Part shown: positions 3,996 through 39,754 of the stretch, piece after piece
How the letters are laid out: every line of letters starts with the position of its first letter
Position numbering within the stretch: the stretch's first letter is position 1
Assembly: GCA_031400935.1 (NCBI GenBank)
Contig: JANNQV010000023.1
Location: forward strand, 1-56,974
Source of the DNA: Armatimonadota bacterium
GTDB taxonomy: Bacteria; Armatimonadota; Fimbriimonadia; Fimbriimonadales; Fimbriimonadaceae
Length of the DNA stretch: 56,974 nucleotides
Reading direction: 5' to 3'
Notes under the pieces: model-generated
The model's database searches: none
Seen by the model: the letters and a program-made list of their open reading frames with translations, nothing else
Told to the model about the DNA's origin: nothing
Position numbers and translations under genes: made by a program

Positions 3996-6701
3996 CTACG
4001 GATTCGCAACTTCGACAGCTATGTCAAACGTGAATCCTGACTCACGATAATCTACCGCGACCTTTGACCCATCGGCAACCTCCCCACTTAGAATCTTTTG
4101 AGCAAGCGGGTTCATGATGTGCGTTTGGATCGCCCTTTTGAGCGGTCGTGCGCCATAGATCGGGTCGAACCCTGCAACTGCGATTTGCGTTTGCGCCTCT
4201 TCGCTTAAGGAAAGCTGGATTCGGCGGGTTTCGAGCCGTTTCATCAGCTCGCTGAGCTGGAGGACCACGATGCTGCGAATTTCGGCAACGCCCAGCGAAC
4301 GAAACACGATCATGTCGTCGATTCGGTTCACGAATTCGGGGCGGAATGCCATGCGAACCTCTTCGAGAATCCGCTGCTTGGTCTCTTCAAACGAGCCCTT
4401 CTGTGTCTCGGGTGTCTCGCCCGAGGACTTACTGCTTTTCTCGAAGGATAGTCCGAGCCGAACTTCTGAATCCTCGGGCGAGACGCCCGAGCCACTTAAT
4501 CCAAATGGATCGGCATAATGCTGCGAACCGAGGTTGCTGGTCATGATGACCACCGTATTTCGAAAATCTACAGTCCTGCCATGTCCATCAGTCAGCCTGC
4601 CGTCGTCCAGGAGCTGTAACAGCACATTGAACACTTCGGGGTGCGCCTTTTCAATTTCATCTAGAAGCACAACACTATAGGGCCGGCGGCGCACGGCTTC
4701 AGTCAATTGCCCGCCTTCTTCGAACCCTACATAACCTGGAGGAGCACCTATTAACCTCGCAATCGAGTGCTTCTCGCCAAATTCGCTCATGTCGATTCGG
4801 ACGATGTTTTTGTCATCGTCAAAAAGGAATTCAGCGAGGGCCTTTGCGGTCTCGGTCTTCCCTACGCCAGTCGGACCCAGGAACAGGAACGAGCCAATCG
4901 GACGGTGCGGATCGCTGATTCCTGCTCGGGAACGACGAATTGCATCGCTCACTATGCGCAATGCTTCTTCTTGCCCCACTACTCTTGCCCGGAGCTTGTC
5001 TTCCATCGTCAGAAGCTTTTGCATTTCGCCCTGCATGAGCTTGCTAACGGGAATCCCAGTCCATTTTGCTACAACTTCTGCGATATCTTCGCTGTCTACC
5101 TCTTCTTTGAGCATTTTTCCGCTCTCTTGAATCCGTGCTAATTCAGCTGATTCTTTGTCTAACTGCCTCAAAATTTCAGGCATTTTGCCATGTTGAATCT
5201 CGGCTGCCCTGCCCCAATCCGCATCGCGTTGAGCCTGCTCAAACTGAAGCTTCTGTTCTTCATATTCCGTTTTGAATTTGCGAACGCTCTCGATTCGCTC
5301 CTTTTCCGCTTGCCATGTCGCTCGGAGTGCGCTTGACTTTTCTTGCAAGTCGGCAATCTTTTTCTCGGTCGCGGATAAACGTTCTTTGCTTGGTTTGTCG
5401 TCTTCCTTCTTCAGAGCTTCCACGTCAATGTGAAGCTGGTTCATTTGCCTTTCAACTTCGTCTATTTCGGCTGGAACGGAGTCAATTTCGATCTTGAGCT
5501 TGCTAGCCGCTTCATCCATCAAGTCAATTGCTTTGTCGGGCAGAAACCGGTCAGAAATGTAGCGCGAACTTAAGGTCGCGGCGGCTACCAAAGCAGAATC
5601 TGTTATTCGAACGCCGTGGTGAATCTCGTAACGGTTTTTGAGTCCTCGAAGTATTGAAATCGTGTCTTCGACGCTCGGCTCTGAAACAAAAACAGGTTGG
5701 AAGCGCCTTTCTAGCGCGGCATCTTTCTCCAAATGCTTGCGAAATTCGTCAAGGGTTGTTGCGCCGACGGTTCTCAATTCACCTCGAGCCAGCATCGGCT
5801 TAAGCATGTTGGCGGCGTCCATTGAGCCTTCCGCTTTACCTGCGCCGACCAAATTGTGAAGCTCGTCAATGAAGAGAATGATTCGCCCTTCCGAATTTTT
5901 GATTTCGTCGAGAACAGCTTTCAGGCGGTCTTCAAACTCGCCACGGTACTTTGCTCCCGCAATAAGGGCGCCTAAGTCCAGCGAAATTACAGACTTGTCC
6001 CGAAGGCTTTCAGGAACGTCGCCAGATGCAACCCGCTGGGCTAAACCTTCGACAACTGCCGTTTTTCCAACACCTGGCTCTCCGATCAAAACTGGGTTGT
6101 TCTTGGTTCTGCGACTGAGAACTTGTATGATACGGCGAATTTCTTCATCGCGACCGATTACAGGGTCTAGTTTGCCTTGCCTTGCCTTGGCCGTGAGGTC
6201 AATTCCGTATTTTTCGAGAGCTTGAAACTTGTCTTCAGGATTCTGATCAGTAATCCGCCTTCCCATTCGGAACGATTCGATGGCCTGTTCGATAGTCGCC
6301 TTATCTGCTCCATATGTAGATAGGAGCTTGCTTGAAAAGCCGCCTTCTTCGGCAATTCCAATAAGAAAGTGCTCGGCAGAGACGTACTCGTCCTTCATCG
6401 CTTCTGCGGCGTTAAAGGCAAAAATAAACGCTTTTTGAAGCCTTGGGCCGATCGTGGTTCCATAACCTTGGCTGGTAGTTACTCTCGGGTAAGTTCCAAG
6501 CTCTTCATCCAGTTTCTTTGCAATTAAACGGGGATCAACGCCAATTTTCTCCAATGCTGGAGCCGCAACACCGCCCTGTTGGCCTAGCATGGCGAGGAAA
6601 AGATGCTCGACTTCAATACTTGTATGTTGAAGTTTCGTCGCAACGTCTTGCCCCTCTTGAAAGAGTTCCTGTGCTTTGATCGTGAGTTTATCGAATCGCA
6701 T
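3996..6701 (-). CDS. clpB: ATP-dependent chaperone ClpB (with in-frame repeat insertion)
   Basis: Two AAA+ modules ([16 protein letters not shown]), coiled-coil M domain, YGARPLKR; start taken at MRFDKLT (6701). Confidence 0.97.
4403..4495. repeat. Inverted doublet of GTGN-N6-CGTCYCG-N6' hairpin units, in frame within clpB
   Basis: gtgt-ctcggg-tgtctcg-cccgag (4403-4425) and ctcggg-cgagacg-cccgag-ccac (4473-4495); span 93 bp = 31 codons. Confidence 0.9.
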
Positions 6702-6709
6702 AATCTTTA

Positions 6710-6730
6710 CTTGAGCCTCATACACTCAAA
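6710..6730. promoter_or_regulatory. HAIR-like (HspR) operator upstream of clpB
   Basis: CTTGAGC-N7-ACTCAAA versus HAIR consensus CTTGAGT-N7-ACTCAAG; lies between a TATACT -10 (6746-6751, minus strand) and the clpB ATG. Confidence 0.75.
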
Positions 6731-16708: not shown

Positions 16709-17920
16709 ATGCACTATATCGCTTCTCTATCCATTCCGCACTTCTATCTTCTGCCATTCGCCAATGACGAGGAGAGAAATGCTCAGCCGCTGCTCATTTC
16801 TCATGAGAAGATGATCATTGACGCAAACGAAGCCGCGTTGACTGCTGGGTTTCGAGTTGGAATGAGCCTTCAAGAGGCGAAGTGCTTGGCAGAAAGCTCT
16901 TCATGGATCGTGGCCTTTGAGGAAGAAAGCTACCGAGAGTTTCAAAAGCAGATGCTCGAACTCTGCGCCGAGTTCACAGACCGGATCGAGCCTGCTGAAA
17001 TGCACCGCGCATATTTGGATTTGAGAGGTCATTCCCAACCTGGCCTATTAGCGTGGGAAGCTGCCAAGAGGCTGAGCGAGAGGTTTCAAACGGATGTTCA
17101 TATCGGATTTGCTCAGGCGAAATGGGTTGCGAGATTGGGAGAAACGTCCTTCTGTGCCTCGTCCGAGTGTGACCTGTCCGGAAGTGGCTCGTCACATAAA
17201 CTTTCAGATTCCTTCGCTCAAGCAGCACGTTTTCTTGCCTCACAACGGGTCTCAAAACTCTCGCCAGTCACCGCAGAAACTCGCCAACGACTGCAATTTT
17301 TAGGGTATCCGCTGATAGGGGATGTGCAAAAAATCCCACTTCGGACCCTGAAATCGCAGTTTCGAGAAGAGGCAAATATCATCGCATCAGCCTCGCTGGG
17401 CACCTTCGACGACCCGGTCATTCCAACTTTTCGAATCACTCGAATCTCAGGCAAAATTGAACTGGGAGATGCATCAACATGGCTTGAAGTCGAGCCTGCT
17501 TTGCGAAAACTGGCAAAACGACTCAGCACAAGATTGAAGAATTTAGATTCCATAACTCGAACAGTTAGCCTATCTGTAGCCTTTTCTTCAGGACATTGCA
17601 AAGACCTCTCGAGAACATTTTCAAAGCCACTTCAATCCACTCTTGACCTTCTTCGCGCAATCGTTGTTCTCTTTCCAGAATGCAAAGAGCCTGTCGAGTC
17701 AGTATTTGTTGAGCTTCCCGAGCTAGAGAAAATGCGCCAAAAGCAAAGGCAGCTTGACGGCTCGCATGATCTTGGCGAGCGCAAAATCTCTGCTGAAGCT
17801 GCATTTCTTTCACTCAAAACCACATTTGGAGATTCAGCTATACAGGTCGCCGCTGACGTAGCACTTCCCCGCCGCAAGCTCGTTCTAAGGGCATGGCAAA
17901 ACGCAAATGGATGGCATTAA
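16709..17920 (+). CDS. imuB: ImuB-like catalytically inactive Y-family polymerase
   Basis: Y-family fold motifs (GFRVGMSLQEAK, HIGFAQAKWVARL); catalytic SIDE replaced by EMHR; overlaps dnaE2. Confidence 0.82.
   Translation: MHYIASLSIPHFYLLPFANDEERNAQPLLISHEKMIIDANEAALTAGFRVGMSLQEAKCLAESSSWIVAFEEESYREFQKQMLELCAEFTDRIEPAEMHRAYLDLRGHSQPGLLAWEAAKRLSERFQTDVHIGFAQAKWVARLGETSFCASSECDLSGSGSSHKLSDSFAQAARFLASQRVSKLSPVTAETRQRLQFLGYPLIGDVQKIPLRTLKSQFREEANIIASASLGTFDDPVIPTFRITRISGKIELGDASTWLEVEPALRKLAKRLSTRLKNLDSITRTVSLSVAFSSGHCKDLSRTFSKPLQSTLDLLRAIVVLFPECKEPVESVFVELPELEKMRQKQRQLDGSHDLGERKISAEAAFLSLKTTFGDSAIQVAADVALPRRKLVLRAWQNANGWH
17153..17197. repeat. Three 15-bp tandem half-units resembling the GTGN hairpin element, in frame in imuB
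   Basis: tgtgcctcgtccgag / tgtgacctgtccgga / agtggctcgtcacat; the second matches the dnaE2 unit start tgtgacatgtccg at 12 of 13 nt. Confidence 0.5.
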
Positions 17921-20900
17921 TTTACTCGCCAAATGGCGAGAAACGGGCGAGTGGTGGAGCGGTGAATCGCAAGCGGAGTTCACTCGATCCATAGCTTCAA
18001 ACGGCATTAGAAGGGAAACCAGCATCGAGTTGCCATCGCTGACTCATCGAAAACTGACACCCAAAGAGCAACAAGAGCTTCTTGCGCCTGAGACCAACAA
18101 CCGCGAAGAGTGGAACCTGCGAATTCACAAGCGGCGCGACGAAAAAGTGGCTCAGGCTTGCGGCTATCTTCCTCGAGAAGTCGAAGTTGTTTCCACAAAC
18201 TTATTGCCAAAAACTTATGCGGCGTTGCAGGTTCAAAGCGGATACAGCATCGGAAGAGGAACCATGCTCGCCGAAGAAATTCCTATTTTATGCGCTGGTG
18301 CTGGAATTTCTGCGGCTTGCCTAGCCGACCATTTTTCACTCATTGGTGCAGTCGAATTCGTGCGTCGTAGCAAGGCAGTCGGAATCAAGCCTCTTGTCGG
18401 TTGCACAGTTGAAATGGAAGACGGTTCCGAACTTGTTCTCATTGCGAAAAGCAAACATGGCTATCAATCGCTTTCGCACTTGCTGACAGGGTGCCATTTA
18501 GAAGAACCGCGCCAATTTCCGCTTTGCAATTGGCAACGACTCGAACAGTATTCACGAGATTTGATTTGCCTTTGCGGCGGGCATCGTTCGGCTGCGAATC
18601 GTCTATTGATTCAAGGGCGAACTCAAGAAGCAGCTTCACAAATTGAAAAACTGTGCTTAGTTTTTGGAAGAAGTAACATCGCAATTCAAGTAGATCGAAG
18701 CTATTTGCCGTGGGAAGTATCCGTGAATCGAAATCTGGAATCCATTGCCGATTCATTGGGAATTCTATTGGTTGCTGGTGGAAAAGTTACTCATGCTCGA
18801 CCCGAGCATTTCCCTGTTCAAGACGTGCTGGTTTGCACAGACACTCTTTGCCGAATCGAGGAAATCATTGGCCGAAAGCCTAGAAGAGACGAGTTTCAGC
18901 ATCAAATTTCGAACCATGAGCCCTTGCGAGAAATCAACGCTGAAAGATACTTACGAACACCGAGGGAATTTGGAGAATTGTTTTCTGATCGGCCAGAACT
19001 GATTGAAAACACGATCCGATTGGCAGATCGCTGCGATGACGACGTTCTTCCGCACAGAACCAGACTTCCACAAATGTATTCCGATCCTGGACATACATTA
19101 CACGAAATCGCATGGGTCGGAGCGCATGAACGGCATCCAAAGATCGCTCCTGGGTTGAAAAAACAGATTGATCATGAGCTAGAAAGAATCATTCGTCTCA
19201 ACTTTGCCGATCACTTTCTCACTGCTTGGGATATGTGCAATTGGGCGCGAGAAGAAGGCATTTTCTTTTCCGGAAGAGGTTCGGTTGTTGATGCCGCAGT
19301 TTCCTATTGCCTAGGTTTTTCAAGGATTGACGCCTACAAGCACAATCTGCATTTCGACCGATTTCTTCCTGACGATGGAAGCAAACGGCCAGACATTGAC
19401 ATTGACTTTGAATCTACGCGACGTGAAGACGTTCGCACATATGTGACACAAAAATATGGAGTCGAAAGAGTTGCCACAGTAGCTGCGATTGGAACCTACT
19501 GCACGAGAGGCATCGTTCGTGAAGTCGGCAAAGTGATGGGATTGCCGGACGCGCTGATCGGTTTCCTTGCCAAGAGAATGCATGGCGGAGTAACGCCTGA
19601 AAAATTGGAGTCTTCACTGCTACATCGCCCGGAACTTGCTGGAAGCGGAATCCCGAAGGAGCGATTCCGATGGGTTTTTGAACTCGCTGAGAGAATGCAA
19701 GACCTCCCTCGCAACATCCGTTCCCATTCTTCGGGAGTTGTGATTTCGAGTGAGCCGATTTCAAACACAGTGCCAGTTATGTGGTCAGCGACGGAATGTG
19801 ACATGTCCGTCTCGGACATGAGTGGCTTGACCGTCCCGGTCAAGAGTGGCTTGTGCTGCTCGCACGAGAGGGAGCATTTGCGAGACGCAAACGGAACGCA
19901 TATTCGGGACGAATATGCCACACATGTCCGGGACGGACATGGCACATCAACAAATCTCAGAATCATTCAATGGGACAAGCGAAGCGCAAAATACTACTTT
20001 GACAAATTTGACATTCTCTGTTTACGCGGGCAAAACGTTCTTCGAGGTACAGAGGAGAGAATTCGGGTTAGCCAAAGCGAATTCAGAATCGAGTCGTTTC
20101 CATTAGATGACGACGAGCCGTATCGAGCCATGCGAACTGGCGAACTCATCGGTATTCCTCAATCGGCTTCGCCAGCCATGAGGCAGGCGCATATTCGGGT
20201 TCGAACTTCCAATCTGCACGATGCAAGCTTGGTTCAAGCGGGAATTCGTCCAGGCGTTGGCGGCGCAGTAAAAATAAATGAATTGATTGCTCGAAGACGC
20301 GGAAAACCGTTCACTTTCGAGCATCGCGATCTTGAAGAGATTTTGGGATTGACCTACGGAATATTGGTCTTTCAAGAGCAAGTAGATCAACTTTTGCAAA
20401 AATTCGCGGGCTACTCTTCCGGAGAAGCAGAAGAGACCAGAGAGAACATTCATAAACATAGAAGAGAAGATTTTGGAGAGTCGGTGAAGGACGGAATCCT
20501 TGCTCGTATTCGAGCGAACGGATATGACGAAAATGTAGCTGAAGCGGTTTTTCGATACGTTTCCGAGTTCAAAGGATACGGTTTTGCGCAAGGTCATGCT
20601 TTGGCGTTTGCTGAAATTTCTATTCGATGCATCGCCTGTCAGCAAAATTATCCTGGGGCTTATTTTTCCTCACTCTTAGATGCTCAGCCAGCCGGATATT
20701 ACGGCCCATGCACTCTTGTAAACGAAGCTAGAGATCGAGGCATCGCAATTCTTCCTCCATCCGTGAACATGAGCACATTGCGATTTGAAGTTGAGGATGT
20801 TCTTTCGGCAATGGATCCAAAAATTCGATTGCCCGATGGCGGAATTCGGGTGTCGTTGAAGCAAATTTCAGCGATTTCTTCAGGAACAAGGGATCGAATC

Positions 20901-21629
20901 CTTCATGACAGAACTGATCATCTGTTTTCAAATTTCTTTGATTTCGTGCGTCGCGTTCAGCCAGATCGAGACGAGTTAGAAAGGCTGATTTTGTGCGGAT
21001 GCTTTGACGAACTTCATGGCAACAGGCGCGCGTTGCTCTGGGCGATTCCTTCGGCGATGACTTGGCTCGCAAGTATGTCGGGCAACTCGCTTGATCTAAC
21101 TTTTGACGAGCCTGTTCTCGACGAAATGATTGAAGATTTTTCAATTCAAGAAAAGGCGATGTACGAACGAGAAATCCTTGATTTAGACGTTCATCGCCAC
21201 CTTGTCGCATTCGAACGAGAAAGAATTCTTTCGAAAGGGGGACTCGACAGCAAATCCATTCGTTCGATGCCTGGCGGCGTGAAATGCATGGTTGTAGGCA
21301 ATCCGATTCGACTTCGATTTCCACCAACTCCAAGCGGAAAACGGGTCGTGTTTTTCGATCTTGAAGACGAGTTTGGGCTTCTGAATGTAACCTGTTTCGA
21401 TGCGGTTTACCGCAGAGATGGACATTCGATTGTATGTTCGCCTTATGTAACTCTACTTGGCGAGACTCAAGATCGAGACGGCCACACGGCATTTCTTGCG
21501 CGACGAGTTTTTCCATACCGTCCAACACTTTCGGGGCATGTTTCTGATCCAACTTCAATTCCTGTAGTTACTGGCGATTTTCTATTTGGAGGCGGAAAGC
21601 AAGGTGGTTTGCTAAAAAATGCGAAATGA
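17907..21629 (+). CDS. dnaE2: Error-prone DNA polymerase III alpha (DnaE2/ImuC) with N-terminal DUF6504-like segment
   Basis: GRGS, LHFDRFL, PDIDIDFE, IQWDK, KFDIL, YGFAQGHA, QPAGYY, LEDEFG; degenerate PHP domain; follows imuB. Confidence 0.92.
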   Translation: MDGINLLAKWRETGEWWSGESQAEFTRSIASNGIRRETSIELPSLTHRKLTPKEQQELLAPETNNREEWNLRIHKRRDEKVAQACGYLPREVEVVSTNLLPKTYAALQVQSGYSIGRGTMLAEEIPILCAGAGISAACLADHFSLIGAVEFVRRSKAVGIKPLVGCTVEMEDGSELVLIAKSKHGYQSLSHLLTGCHLEEPRQFPLCNWQRLEQYSRDLICLCGGHRSAANRLLIQGRTQEAASQIEKLCLVFGRSNIAIQVDRSYLPWEVSVNRNLESIADSLGILLVAGGKVTHARPEHFPVQDVLVCTDTLCRIEEIIGRKPRRDEFQHQISNHEPLREINAERYLRTPREFGELFSDRPELIENTIRLADRCDDDVLPHRTRLPQMYSDPGHTLHEIAWVGAHERHPKIAPGLKKQIDHELERIIRLNFADHFLTAWDMCNWAREEGIFFSGRGSVVDAAVSYCLGFSRIDAYKHNLHFDRFLPDDGSKRPDIDIDFESTRREDVRTYVTQKYGVERVATVAAIGTYCTRGIVREVGKVMGLPDALIGFLAKRMHGGVTPEKLESSLLHRPELAGSGIPKERFRWVFELAERMQDLPRNIRSHSSGVVISSEPISNTVPVMWSATECDMSVSDMSGLTVPVKSGLCCSHEREHLRDANGTHIRDEYATHVRDGHGTSTNLRIIQWDKRSAKYYFDKFDILCLRGQNVLRGTEERIRVSQSEFRIESFPLDDDEPYRAMRTGELIGIPQSASPAMRQAHIRVRTSNLHDASLVQAGIRPGVGGAVKINELIARRRGKPFTFEHRDLEEILGLTYGILVFQEQVDQLLQKFAGYSSGEAEETRENIHKHRREDFGESVKDGILARIRANGYDENVAEAVFRYVSEFKGYGFAQGHALAFAEISIRCIACQQNYPGAYFSSLLDAQPAGYYGPCTLVNEARDRGIAILPPSVNMSTLRFEVEDVLSAMDPKIRLPDGGIRVSLKQISAISSGTRDRILHDRTDHLFSNFFDFVRRVQPDRDELERLILCGCFDELHGNRRALLWAIPSAMTWLASMSGNSLDLTFDEPVLDEMIEDFSIQEKAMYEREILDLDVHRHLVAFERERILSKGGLDSKSIRSMPGGVKCMVVGNPIRLRFPPTPSGKRVVFFDLEDEFGLLNVTCFDAVYRRDGHSIVCSPYVTLLGETQDRDGHTAFLARRVFPYRPTLSGHVSDPTSIPVVTGDFLFGGGKQGGLLKNAK
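19797..19946. repeat. Six-unit (3 forward + 3 reverse) 24-bp hairpin array inserted in frame in dnaE2
   Basis: gtga-catgtc-cgtctcg-gacatg; gtgg-cttgac-cgtcccg-gtcaag; gtgg-cttgtg-ctgctcg-cacgag; then catttg-cgagacg-caaacg-gaac; catatt-cgggacg-aatatg-ccac; catgtc-cgggacg-gacatg-gcac; 150 bp. Confidence 0.92.
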
Positions 21630-37548: not shown

Positions 37549-37588
37549 GAGAGCGCTTGCGTCTCAATTGGATTTATCTCTAGCTTTA

Positions 37589-37637
37589 ATAGCGCGGGCG
37601 TCTCGCCCGCTTCTGTGTTCCGGACGTCCCGTCCGGG
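37589..37637. repeat. Two tandem intergenic units of the CGTCYCG hairpin element
   Basis: atag-cgcggg-cgtctcg-cccgct and gtgt-tccgga-cgtcccg-tccggg. Confidence 0.8.
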
Positions 37638-37670
37638 CTCGAAGCTTAGGAAGGTTTACTCGACATGATT

Positions 37671-39574: not shown

Positions 39575-39637
39575 GACACCCAATTCACCCTGTTCACCCA
39601 TTTCACCCAAGTCATCCACTTCACCCAAATCAACCAC
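39575..39637. repeat. 9-mer tandem repeat (7 units) upstream of tRNA-Leu
   Basis: gacacccaa ttcaccctg ttcacccat ttcacccaa gtcatccac ttcacccaa atcaaccac. Confidence 0.8.
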
Positions 39638-39667
39638 TTCAGGACTTCTGCCATAATTCCTAAGCCC

Positions 39668-39754
<87 letters not shown>

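Follow-up and report, generated by a model that had tools for sequence, protein, structure and literature searches.

Repetitive extragenic palindromic (REP) sequences consist of a tetranucleotide tag and a hairpin; inverted doublets of them fold into one long hairpin, they flank a single gene for a REP-associated tyrosine transposase (RAYT), and their copy numbers are patchy. Systems in which REPs, bacterial interspersed mosaic elements (BIMEs) or REP doublets forming hairpins (REPINs) go together with a RAYT have reportedly been characterized in Escherichia coli, with TnpA-REP, and in Pseudomonas fluorescens, with its REPINs. The Rickettsia palindromic elements (RPEs) are likewise said to be palindromic selfish DNA lying in frame inside conserved genes, and they are not known to have a transposase. 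Here we analyze an array of six tagged hairpins, located at positions 19797–19946 of a 56,974-nt stretch of DNA (the window; contig JANNQV010000023.1 of assembly GCA_031400935.1) from a Fimbriimonadaceae member of the Armatimonadota, that is translated in frame within a gene for a DnaE2-type DNA polymerase. The array is very probably a non-autonomous copy of a selfish element of the REP/REPIN type, belonging to the GTAG-tagged superfamily and carrying here a GTGN tag.

The description that comes closest is the REP survey of Di Nocera, De Gregorio and Rocco (2013, BMC Genomics 14:522; PMC3733652). That paper sorts REPs into GTAG- and CGTC-tagged superfamilies, describes sub-families with alternative complementary stems, places GTAG REPs at the flanks of RAYT genes and equates RPE-4 and RPE-6 with CGTC-tagged REPs. 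It also reports intragenic REPs in several species, many of them in replication and repair genes and explicitly in dnaE2 and uvrA; intragenic insertion of such repeats, dnaE2 included, has already been described. For the GTAG-19 family of Opitutus terrae it lists the peptides GTGVPPV, GTGVSPV and HGRDARAT, all frames being in use, and for an O. terrae family it gives a change of the tag from GTAG to GTGG. Apart from two unrelated papers, full-text literature searches for intragenic REPs or RAYTs returned no report beyond this one.

The array is a REPIN-like composite palindrome with no strand of its own, FFF-AGGGAG-RRR, as delimited by a repeat finder and by folding, where F and R are forward and reverse units. 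Read on the tag strand, a unit comprises a 5-nt lead (N followed by GTGN), six variable nucleotides, CG, a loop of 3 nt (TCT or TCC), a second CG, and the complement of the variable nucleotides, giving a stem of 8 bp (six variable pairs plus CG). On the plus strand lie unit 1 (19797–19820; lead TGTGA, arms CATGTC/GACATG, loop TCT), unit 2 (19821–19844; AGTGG, CTTGAC/GTCAAG, loop TCC), both with perfect stems and the second with a stem found also at other loci, and unit 3 (19845–19868; AGTGG, CTTGTG/CACGAG), whose core, CTGCTCG, is degenerate and whose stem includes one T.G pair. The 6-nt centre AGGGAG (19869–19874) is followed on the minus strand by unit 4 (19875–19898; CATTTG/CAAACG, core CGAGACG, then GAACG), with one mismatch that is G.T on its own tag strand, unit 5 (19899–19922; CATATT/AATATG, core CGGGACG, then CCACA), whose perfect stem is unique in the genome, and unit 6 (19923–19946; CATGTC/GACATG, core CGGGACG, then GCACA), with a perfect stem equal to that of unit 1. 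A reading made previously from the letters alone (the sequence-only reading) had announced three forward and three reverse units at an exact 24-bp period, with arms that differ and nearly all pair. The units were found where it had placed them and with the arms it had listed; pairing is perfect in four of the six. The spacings between hairpin starts are 24, 24, 25, 24 and 24 nt, and the period is exact within each arm. It had also described a stop-free 150-bp span adding about 50 aa to DnaE2, and the array indeed amounts to 150 nt, that is 50 codons without a stop in open reading frame (ORF) 17907–21629, between VPVMWSATE and STNLRIIQWDK. Folding z-scores are −9.5 as DNA and −8.6 as RNA, and none of 200 shuffles folds as well. 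In the minimum-energy fold unit 1 pairs with unit 6 and the inner units form local hairpins; the inverted arms (19796–19864 and 19879–19947) are 74% complementary. At Rfam gathering thresholds the window yielded only two tRNAs and no match at the array.

The host gene (17907–21629, plus strand) is intact and encodes a DnaE2-type polymerase III alpha subunit of 1240 aa with Pfam PHP, DNA_pol3_alpha, finger and HHH_6 domains; the array occupies residues ~631–680. Using the protein as query, a DnaE2-type match was obtained in 21 of the 30 relatives searched. All 21 orthologues align as two pieces (residues 1 to ~632 and ~680 to 1240) that are adjacent or nearly so in the target, and the segment of ~50 aa is absent from every one of them, including a relative of the same genus (G001) whose DnaE2 is 90–93% identical on either side of the array. 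G001 has a 27-nt linker at the position that is taken up, in the genome under study, by the element plus TCAACA. The linker between VPVMW and RIIQWDK measures from ~5 to ~30 residues across twelve orthologues, in agreement with the short linker that the sequence-only reading gave for DnaE2 proteins at this point, and is variable. Upon alignment to Taq Pol III alpha, residues 631–699 of the query fall opposite chain residues 599–615, between palm and fingers. Because of the two-piece alignments, the varying linker lengths and the position in the Taq alignment, the block is, as judged by these comparisons, lineage-specific and set within a naturally variable linker. Other insertions, of 213 and 108 nt, were seen at about query residue 1004 in the DnaE2 orthologues of G014 (L016, C29:47201–47415) and G017 (L012, C23:36051–36160). 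Hairpin units were not found in these two insertions; that of G014 ends in a CCCCTCCCC..GGGGAGGGG palindrome, and a similar motif lies at about 97–145 of L001.

The array belongs to a family dispersed over the genome, which is a fragmented draft of 67 contigs with a completeness of 95.6%. Scanning both strands for N6-CGTCYCG-N6′ gave 100 matches with no more than one arm mismatch. Perfect CG-NNN-CG hairpins with 8-bp stems number 80, and 69 of them have a TCY or RGA loop; three Markov-3 shuffles contained 2, 5 and 6 such hairpins, none with these loops. Units with the exact GTGN tag and the exact core amount to 77 (56 with perfect arms, 18 with one mismatch and 3 with two), against none in the genome read backwards, so that the higher-than-chance frequency on which the sequence-only reading depended is present. 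Eighteen distinct stems occur among the 56 perfect units. The tagged units are distributed over ~42 loci, mostly as F..R, FRR and FFRR composites bounded by TGTG..CACA. Such terminal ends are those looked for in miniature inverted-repeat transposable elements; neither the DnaE2 nor the ClpB site shows an evident target-site duplication. Of the F..R composites there are 26, and only 7 have a length divisible by three; open frames through composites are spread over all six frames and none is favoured. The family shows no sign of adaptation to coding, and most copies are intergenic.

To describe which parts of the unit are fixed, an alignment was made of 72 units taken from the window, from other gene inserts of the same genome and from RAYT flanks. 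No change is seen in GT of the tag (the rows having been so chosen), in either inner C-G pair or in most of the loop; tags include GTGG, GTAG, GTGT, GTAA, GTAT and others. All six outer stem pairs change on both sides; two-sided changes occupy 127 cells vs 39 in shuffles, none of 500 shuffles scores as high, and slid controls give 7 to 23. The proposal that the element is defined by its structure and fixed loop rather than by stem sequence is borne out by these counts. Across the order, a degenerate unit pattern was detected in 23 of 201 genomes at 1 to 80 copies (49 in the genome under study, 80 in G093 and 5 in the same-genus G001), and the reversed control was 0 everywhere. This patchy spread is typical of mobile DNA. 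Beyond the order, the exact 23-nt unit GTGGCTTGGGCGTCYCGCCCAAG is present in at least 123 stretches of named metagenome-assembled genome (MAG) records, labelled, among the matches listed, Fimbriimonadales/Armatimonadota, Sumerlaeota, Opitutaceae/Verrucomicrobia, Pirellulales, Tepidisphaeraceae, Phycisphaerae and Kiritimatiellia; contamination of bins is possible for single MAG records.

The sequence-only reading had assigned the array to elements of the REP/RAYT kind, and relatives supply the corresponding gene. In G093, of the same order and with its 80 pattern matches, a RAYT-like gene with HVHVV (HUH) and YYDH motifs is bracketed by family units. When this RAYT was used as query, 65 of the 201 genomes of the order matched at E<=1e-10, the tally including G053, flagged as unpublished, which underlies no other claim; neither G001 nor the genome under study matched. 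Among the 30 best RAYT loci, exact-core units stand on both sides, inverted (F..RAYT..R), at 10 and on one side at 4, and the F..RAYT..R arrangement was seen at three further loci, chosen for nearby pattern matches. The commonest flank layout is of two contiguous 24-nt units per side with different outer and inner stems (FF-RAYT-RR), which is the layout of the FFRR elements of the genome under study. The best NCBIfam match of the RAYT-like proteins of relatives is REP_Tyr_transpos, at 76 and 74 bits, below the cut-off of 80. RAYT homologues of relatives lie within open frames of 800–1400 codons; in G093 (L043 538–1977) one frame runs from a TetR-like gene through REP units and RAYT, since no stop interrupts the units in this frame.

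DnaE2 is not the only conserved protein in which such units are translated. Four further intragenic copies, in genes identified by Pfam, were compared with five relatives. An F..R element at 4402–4496 of the window (no strand assigned) lies in frame in clpB (ORF 3999–6725, minus strand), where it encodes a 31-letter peptide in the AAA_2 domain region; ClpB residues ~743–774 are absent in four other genera, and the linker has 13 residues in G001 vs 33 here. The UvrA copy (C20) corresponds to residues 247–278, absent in three genera (G016, G007, G018), and the UbiD-like copy (C35) to residues 122–151, absent in relatives. At the Dtd copy (C25), ~35 residues are absent in four genera and 19 other residues stand in G001. 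A sixth, probable copy lies in a DUF4349 protein (C15), a long open frame running through the element. The count of coding versus intergenic copies therefore comes to six intragenic loci of ~42, five of them verified and one probable, and in-frame copies in five conserved genes agree with the RPE-like behaviour that had been claimed. In all five verified copies the forward unit is read in one common frame (x-G-x-x-V-S/P-x-x); for the reverse units two frames are in use. Candidates at C45:110556, C45:97329, C17:28145 and C61:83725 were rejected as intragenic, being upstream of likely start codons, and were counted as intergenic. A single unit in an ABC permease gene (C18:79509) appears to lie within ordinary permease sequence; it was read as a chance match and rejected as an insertion. 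UvrA (L017) carries a second, Pro/Gly-rich insert at residues ~464–505, present in G001, absent from three other genera and not built of hairpin units.

Raw-read assemblies were consulted for support of the array and for variants of it. In each of two runs (X1 and X2) Logan contigs cover the whole array stretch with 0 differences, at depths 25 and 33. As these runs are possibly the source data of the assembly, they represent a second assembler and not independent data. From a different study (X3) comes a 151-nt contig, of depth 2, that reads across the two junctions of the array with 0 other letters and skips 19891–19938, that is exactly 48 nt or two units; the join forms a perfect CATTTG..CAAATG hairpin followed by GCACA. 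This contig fits in-register loss or gain of units, for which it is weak evidence. Concerning the idea that a 3n period lets the array expand inside proteins, gain or loss of units would keep the frame because a unit is eight codons, as in the 48-nt skip; the part of the idea implying a family adapted to coding is not upheld, only 7 of the 26 composites being 3n in length. A 7,973-nt contig present in both X1 and X2 carries units 1–2 together, with 46 of 48 nt alike; a homologue of unit 3 (CTCGTG..CACGAG) comes next, set apart by a different spacer. The depth of this contig equals that of the main contig in both runs, and the copy is missing from the assembly under study; the contig may be unbinned DNA of the same organism.

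Compared with the described systems, the family has the features by which REPs are recognized: a 24-nt unit, a tag, an 8-bp stem, dispersed copies and alternative complementary stems. Inverted pairing across a short spacer, as in REPINs and BIMEs, is found in the 26 F..R composites and in the folding together of units 1 and 6. A RAYT flanked by the same REPs (a REPtron) is found in related genomes and not in the assembly under study. With the E. coli and P. fluorescens systems the family shares the tag plus hairpin, the inverted doublets, the RAYT flanked by repeats and the patchy copy numbers; unlike those, which are reported to be almost wholly extragenic, about one locus in eight is intragenic here, the tag is GTGN or GTRN, and the conserved part is the loop and not the stem. 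The likeness to RPEs is one of behaviour only, namely in-frame read-through in conserved genes as extra surface peptides; in contrast to RPEs the family has RAYT-flanked copies in relatives, and no sequence relation is apparent. PMC3733652 indicates a closer likeness to GTAG-19 of O. terrae, a short tagged palindrome occurring as singles, dimers and groups, associated with RAYTs and with copies in dnaE2 and uvrA. The peptides given there are translations of GTGG-CACGGG-CGTCYCG-CCCGTG, and the units flanking the G093 RAYT encode these same peptides. By peptides and tag the present family appears to match GTAG-19. It differs in its host lineage and its stems (CTYGNN, CATNNN), in the position within DnaE2 (residues 631–680 of 1240 vs 934–971 of 1116 in Oter_4053), and in having six units (50 aa) in one block.

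On the basis of the observed family, its covariation, its RAYT link in relatives, orthologues that lack the insert and in-frame copies that recur in other genes, we propose the following course of events for a mobile REP/REPIN-type element. The F..R and FFRR elements would represent the FF-RAYT-RR arrangement with the gene left out. A RAYT would bind tag and hairpin on single-stranded DNA, cut and join, so that inverted sets of units are copied to new sites. One six-unit copy would have landed in the variable palm-to-fingers linker of DnaE2, where it may have survived because its length is 3n, it has no stop codon and the encoded loop is hydrophilic and falls at a tolerant site; subsequent gain or loss of units would proceed by in-register slippage or recombination. 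RAYT catalysis is inferred, as are the date of the insertion and its neutrality for the function of DnaE2.

Several observations weigh against this explanation. The gene flanked by family units that the sequence-only reading had led one to expect is present in relatives, and none was found in the assembly under study, at its 95.6% completeness, with PF01797 or by tblastn with the G093 RAYT. The only Y1_Tnp gene of this genome (C50) scores 101 bits on REP_Tyr_transpos, the cut-off being 80, and has at its flanks (L001 1330–1400 and 2017–2066) inverted copies of another tagged hairpin repeat, present in ~15 copies; that repeat is composed of GGGTGGCA, a variable stem of 8–10 bp and the loop CGAGGAACGAG, and its stems also covary. 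The sole relative of the G093-type RAYT in this genome, a short ORF at C63:16770–17156 (minus strand), lacks the HUH and tyrosine motifs (HUH being replaced by ETTELIF and YYD by SFD) and keeps LPHWR and TYYVTFR; no family units were found near it, and it is, from its motifs, apparently a decayed or domesticated RAYT. At 16 of the 30 best RAYT loci there are no exact-core units, some having variant loops or other hairpin repeats. A clean empty site was not found in G001 at either the DnaE2 or the ClpB locus; as G001 has 27 different bases in place of the DnaE2 element and TCAACA, either something other than a simple addition took place or the linker diverged afterwards. The DnaE2 site showed no target duplication, and the 48-nt variant was seen on one contig of depth 2. 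Finally, only units with at most one arm mismatch and with GT in the tag entered the covariation alignment, so the 96.6% pairing among them is partly by construction.

Four other explanations were considered. The sequence-only reading had deduced from the non-identical, self-complementary neighbours that one arm is rewritten on the template of the other; the array would then have diversified in place inside DnaE2, for instance by quasi-palindrome template switching. Correction of quasi-palindromes by this route is an established mutational process, the perfect stem of unit 5 has no second occurrence in the genome, the two pair changes that distinguish units 2 and 3 are fully compensated, and stem covariation is strong across the family. 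However, differing adjacent stems are the standard layout of the family at RAYT genes (FF-RAYT-RR), other loci share most of the array's stems (CATGTC, CTTGAC), and selection for recognition by a transposase can alone explain covariation. The block of units 1–2 and the unit-3 homologue recur in the sister copy; the arrangement was therefore inherited and not rewritten in place, and since the unit order is inherited, templated rewriting is needless. That deduction is not supported, and we consider in-place rewriting improbable. The hairpins might instead act in the dnaE2 messenger, e.g., by slowing ribosomes or stabilizing the mRNA, as the RNA fold with its z-score of −8.6 and the two array mismatches, both G.T on the tag strand, could suggest; PMC3733652 argues for RNA action of many REPs from frequent G.T pairs. 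Over the whole genome, however, tag-strand mismatches are 10 G.T vs 7 A.C, with no strand bias, half of the array has the opposite orientation, orthologues lack the array and Rfam has no match at the region, which leaves an RNA-level function quite improbable. That a palindromic block was misjoined into the gene by the assembler has in its favour the fragmentation of the 67-contig draft and the proneness of repeats to misassembly. The Logan contigs of two runs nevertheless span the stretch without difference, the X3 contig crosses the left and right junctions with 0 other letters, the reading frame is intact and orthologues match on either flank; an artefact is hardly conceivable, with the reservation already made on the origin of the two runs.

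A further explanation is concerned with the choice of genes. REPs may land in, or be kept in, damage-response genes such as dnaE2 and uvrA, either because single-stranded DNA is exposed while the transposase is active or because the extra loop alters polymerase or repair activity. DnaE2 and UvrA account for two of the five verified intragenic copies, and in PMC3733652 the dnaE2 and uvrA families head the list of intragenic REPs and the authors doubt that this is by chance. The remaining copies, however, are in ClpB, the UbiD-like gene and Dtd. The linker that holds the DnaE2 array varies naturally, and the array may therefore have survived through tolerance alone; even within the genus it is not conserved, and the insertions of G014 and G017 lie at another DnaE2 site and lack hairpin units. 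No DnaE2-type match was obtained in the REP-rich genomes of family f4, where the matches were all weak and DnaE1-like (30–33% identity), and the UvrA of these genomes has no insert at the site found here. Targeted or selected insertion is thus, in our view, unlikely to account for the array, and the wider proposal, that REP/REPIN hits are non-random and recur in dnaE2 and uvrA across unrelated phyla, coupling hairpin transposition to the DNA-damage response, must be regarded as doubtful. If it were true, the present genome would be an independent case, with one family in both dnaE2 and uvrA, in a lineage remote from the ones surveyed in 2013.

As to the remainder of the window, an ImuB-like Y-family gene (16709–17920, plus strand; Pfam IMS and IMS_C) lies upstream of dnaE2; ImuB-like genes are the usual partners of dnaE2, and this is their usual order. 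Two forward units of a sister subfamily (CGCGGG.. and TCCGGA..) stand between convergent ORFs at 37588–37642, plus strand. The subfamily has the pattern GAG-CGCGGG-CGTCYCG-CCCGCT-TCYGTGY-N6-CGTCYCG-N6′, with look-alikes in the same genome at C35:17318, C28:16584, C27:101684 and C15:213694. A tandem repeat of 9/18 bp (CACCCAATT-like, 3.6–5.7 copies) at 39577–39641 is directly upstream of a tRNA (39668–39751).

For annotation, inserts of this type are not to be taken for domains or for frameshift errors. The published inserts in dnaE2 and uvrA recur here in another lineage, which makes a test of enrichment worthwhile. The comparative data tie the family to its transposase, as the units bracket the gene in relatives, and the distinction between constrained parts of the unit (tag, inner C-G pairs and loop) and a free one (stem sequence) gives a direct prediction of what the RAYT recognizes. 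The genome studied here provides a clean and controlled case of selfish hairpin DNA becoming protein sequence, with 27 to 50 residues in each of five conserved proteins of one genome.

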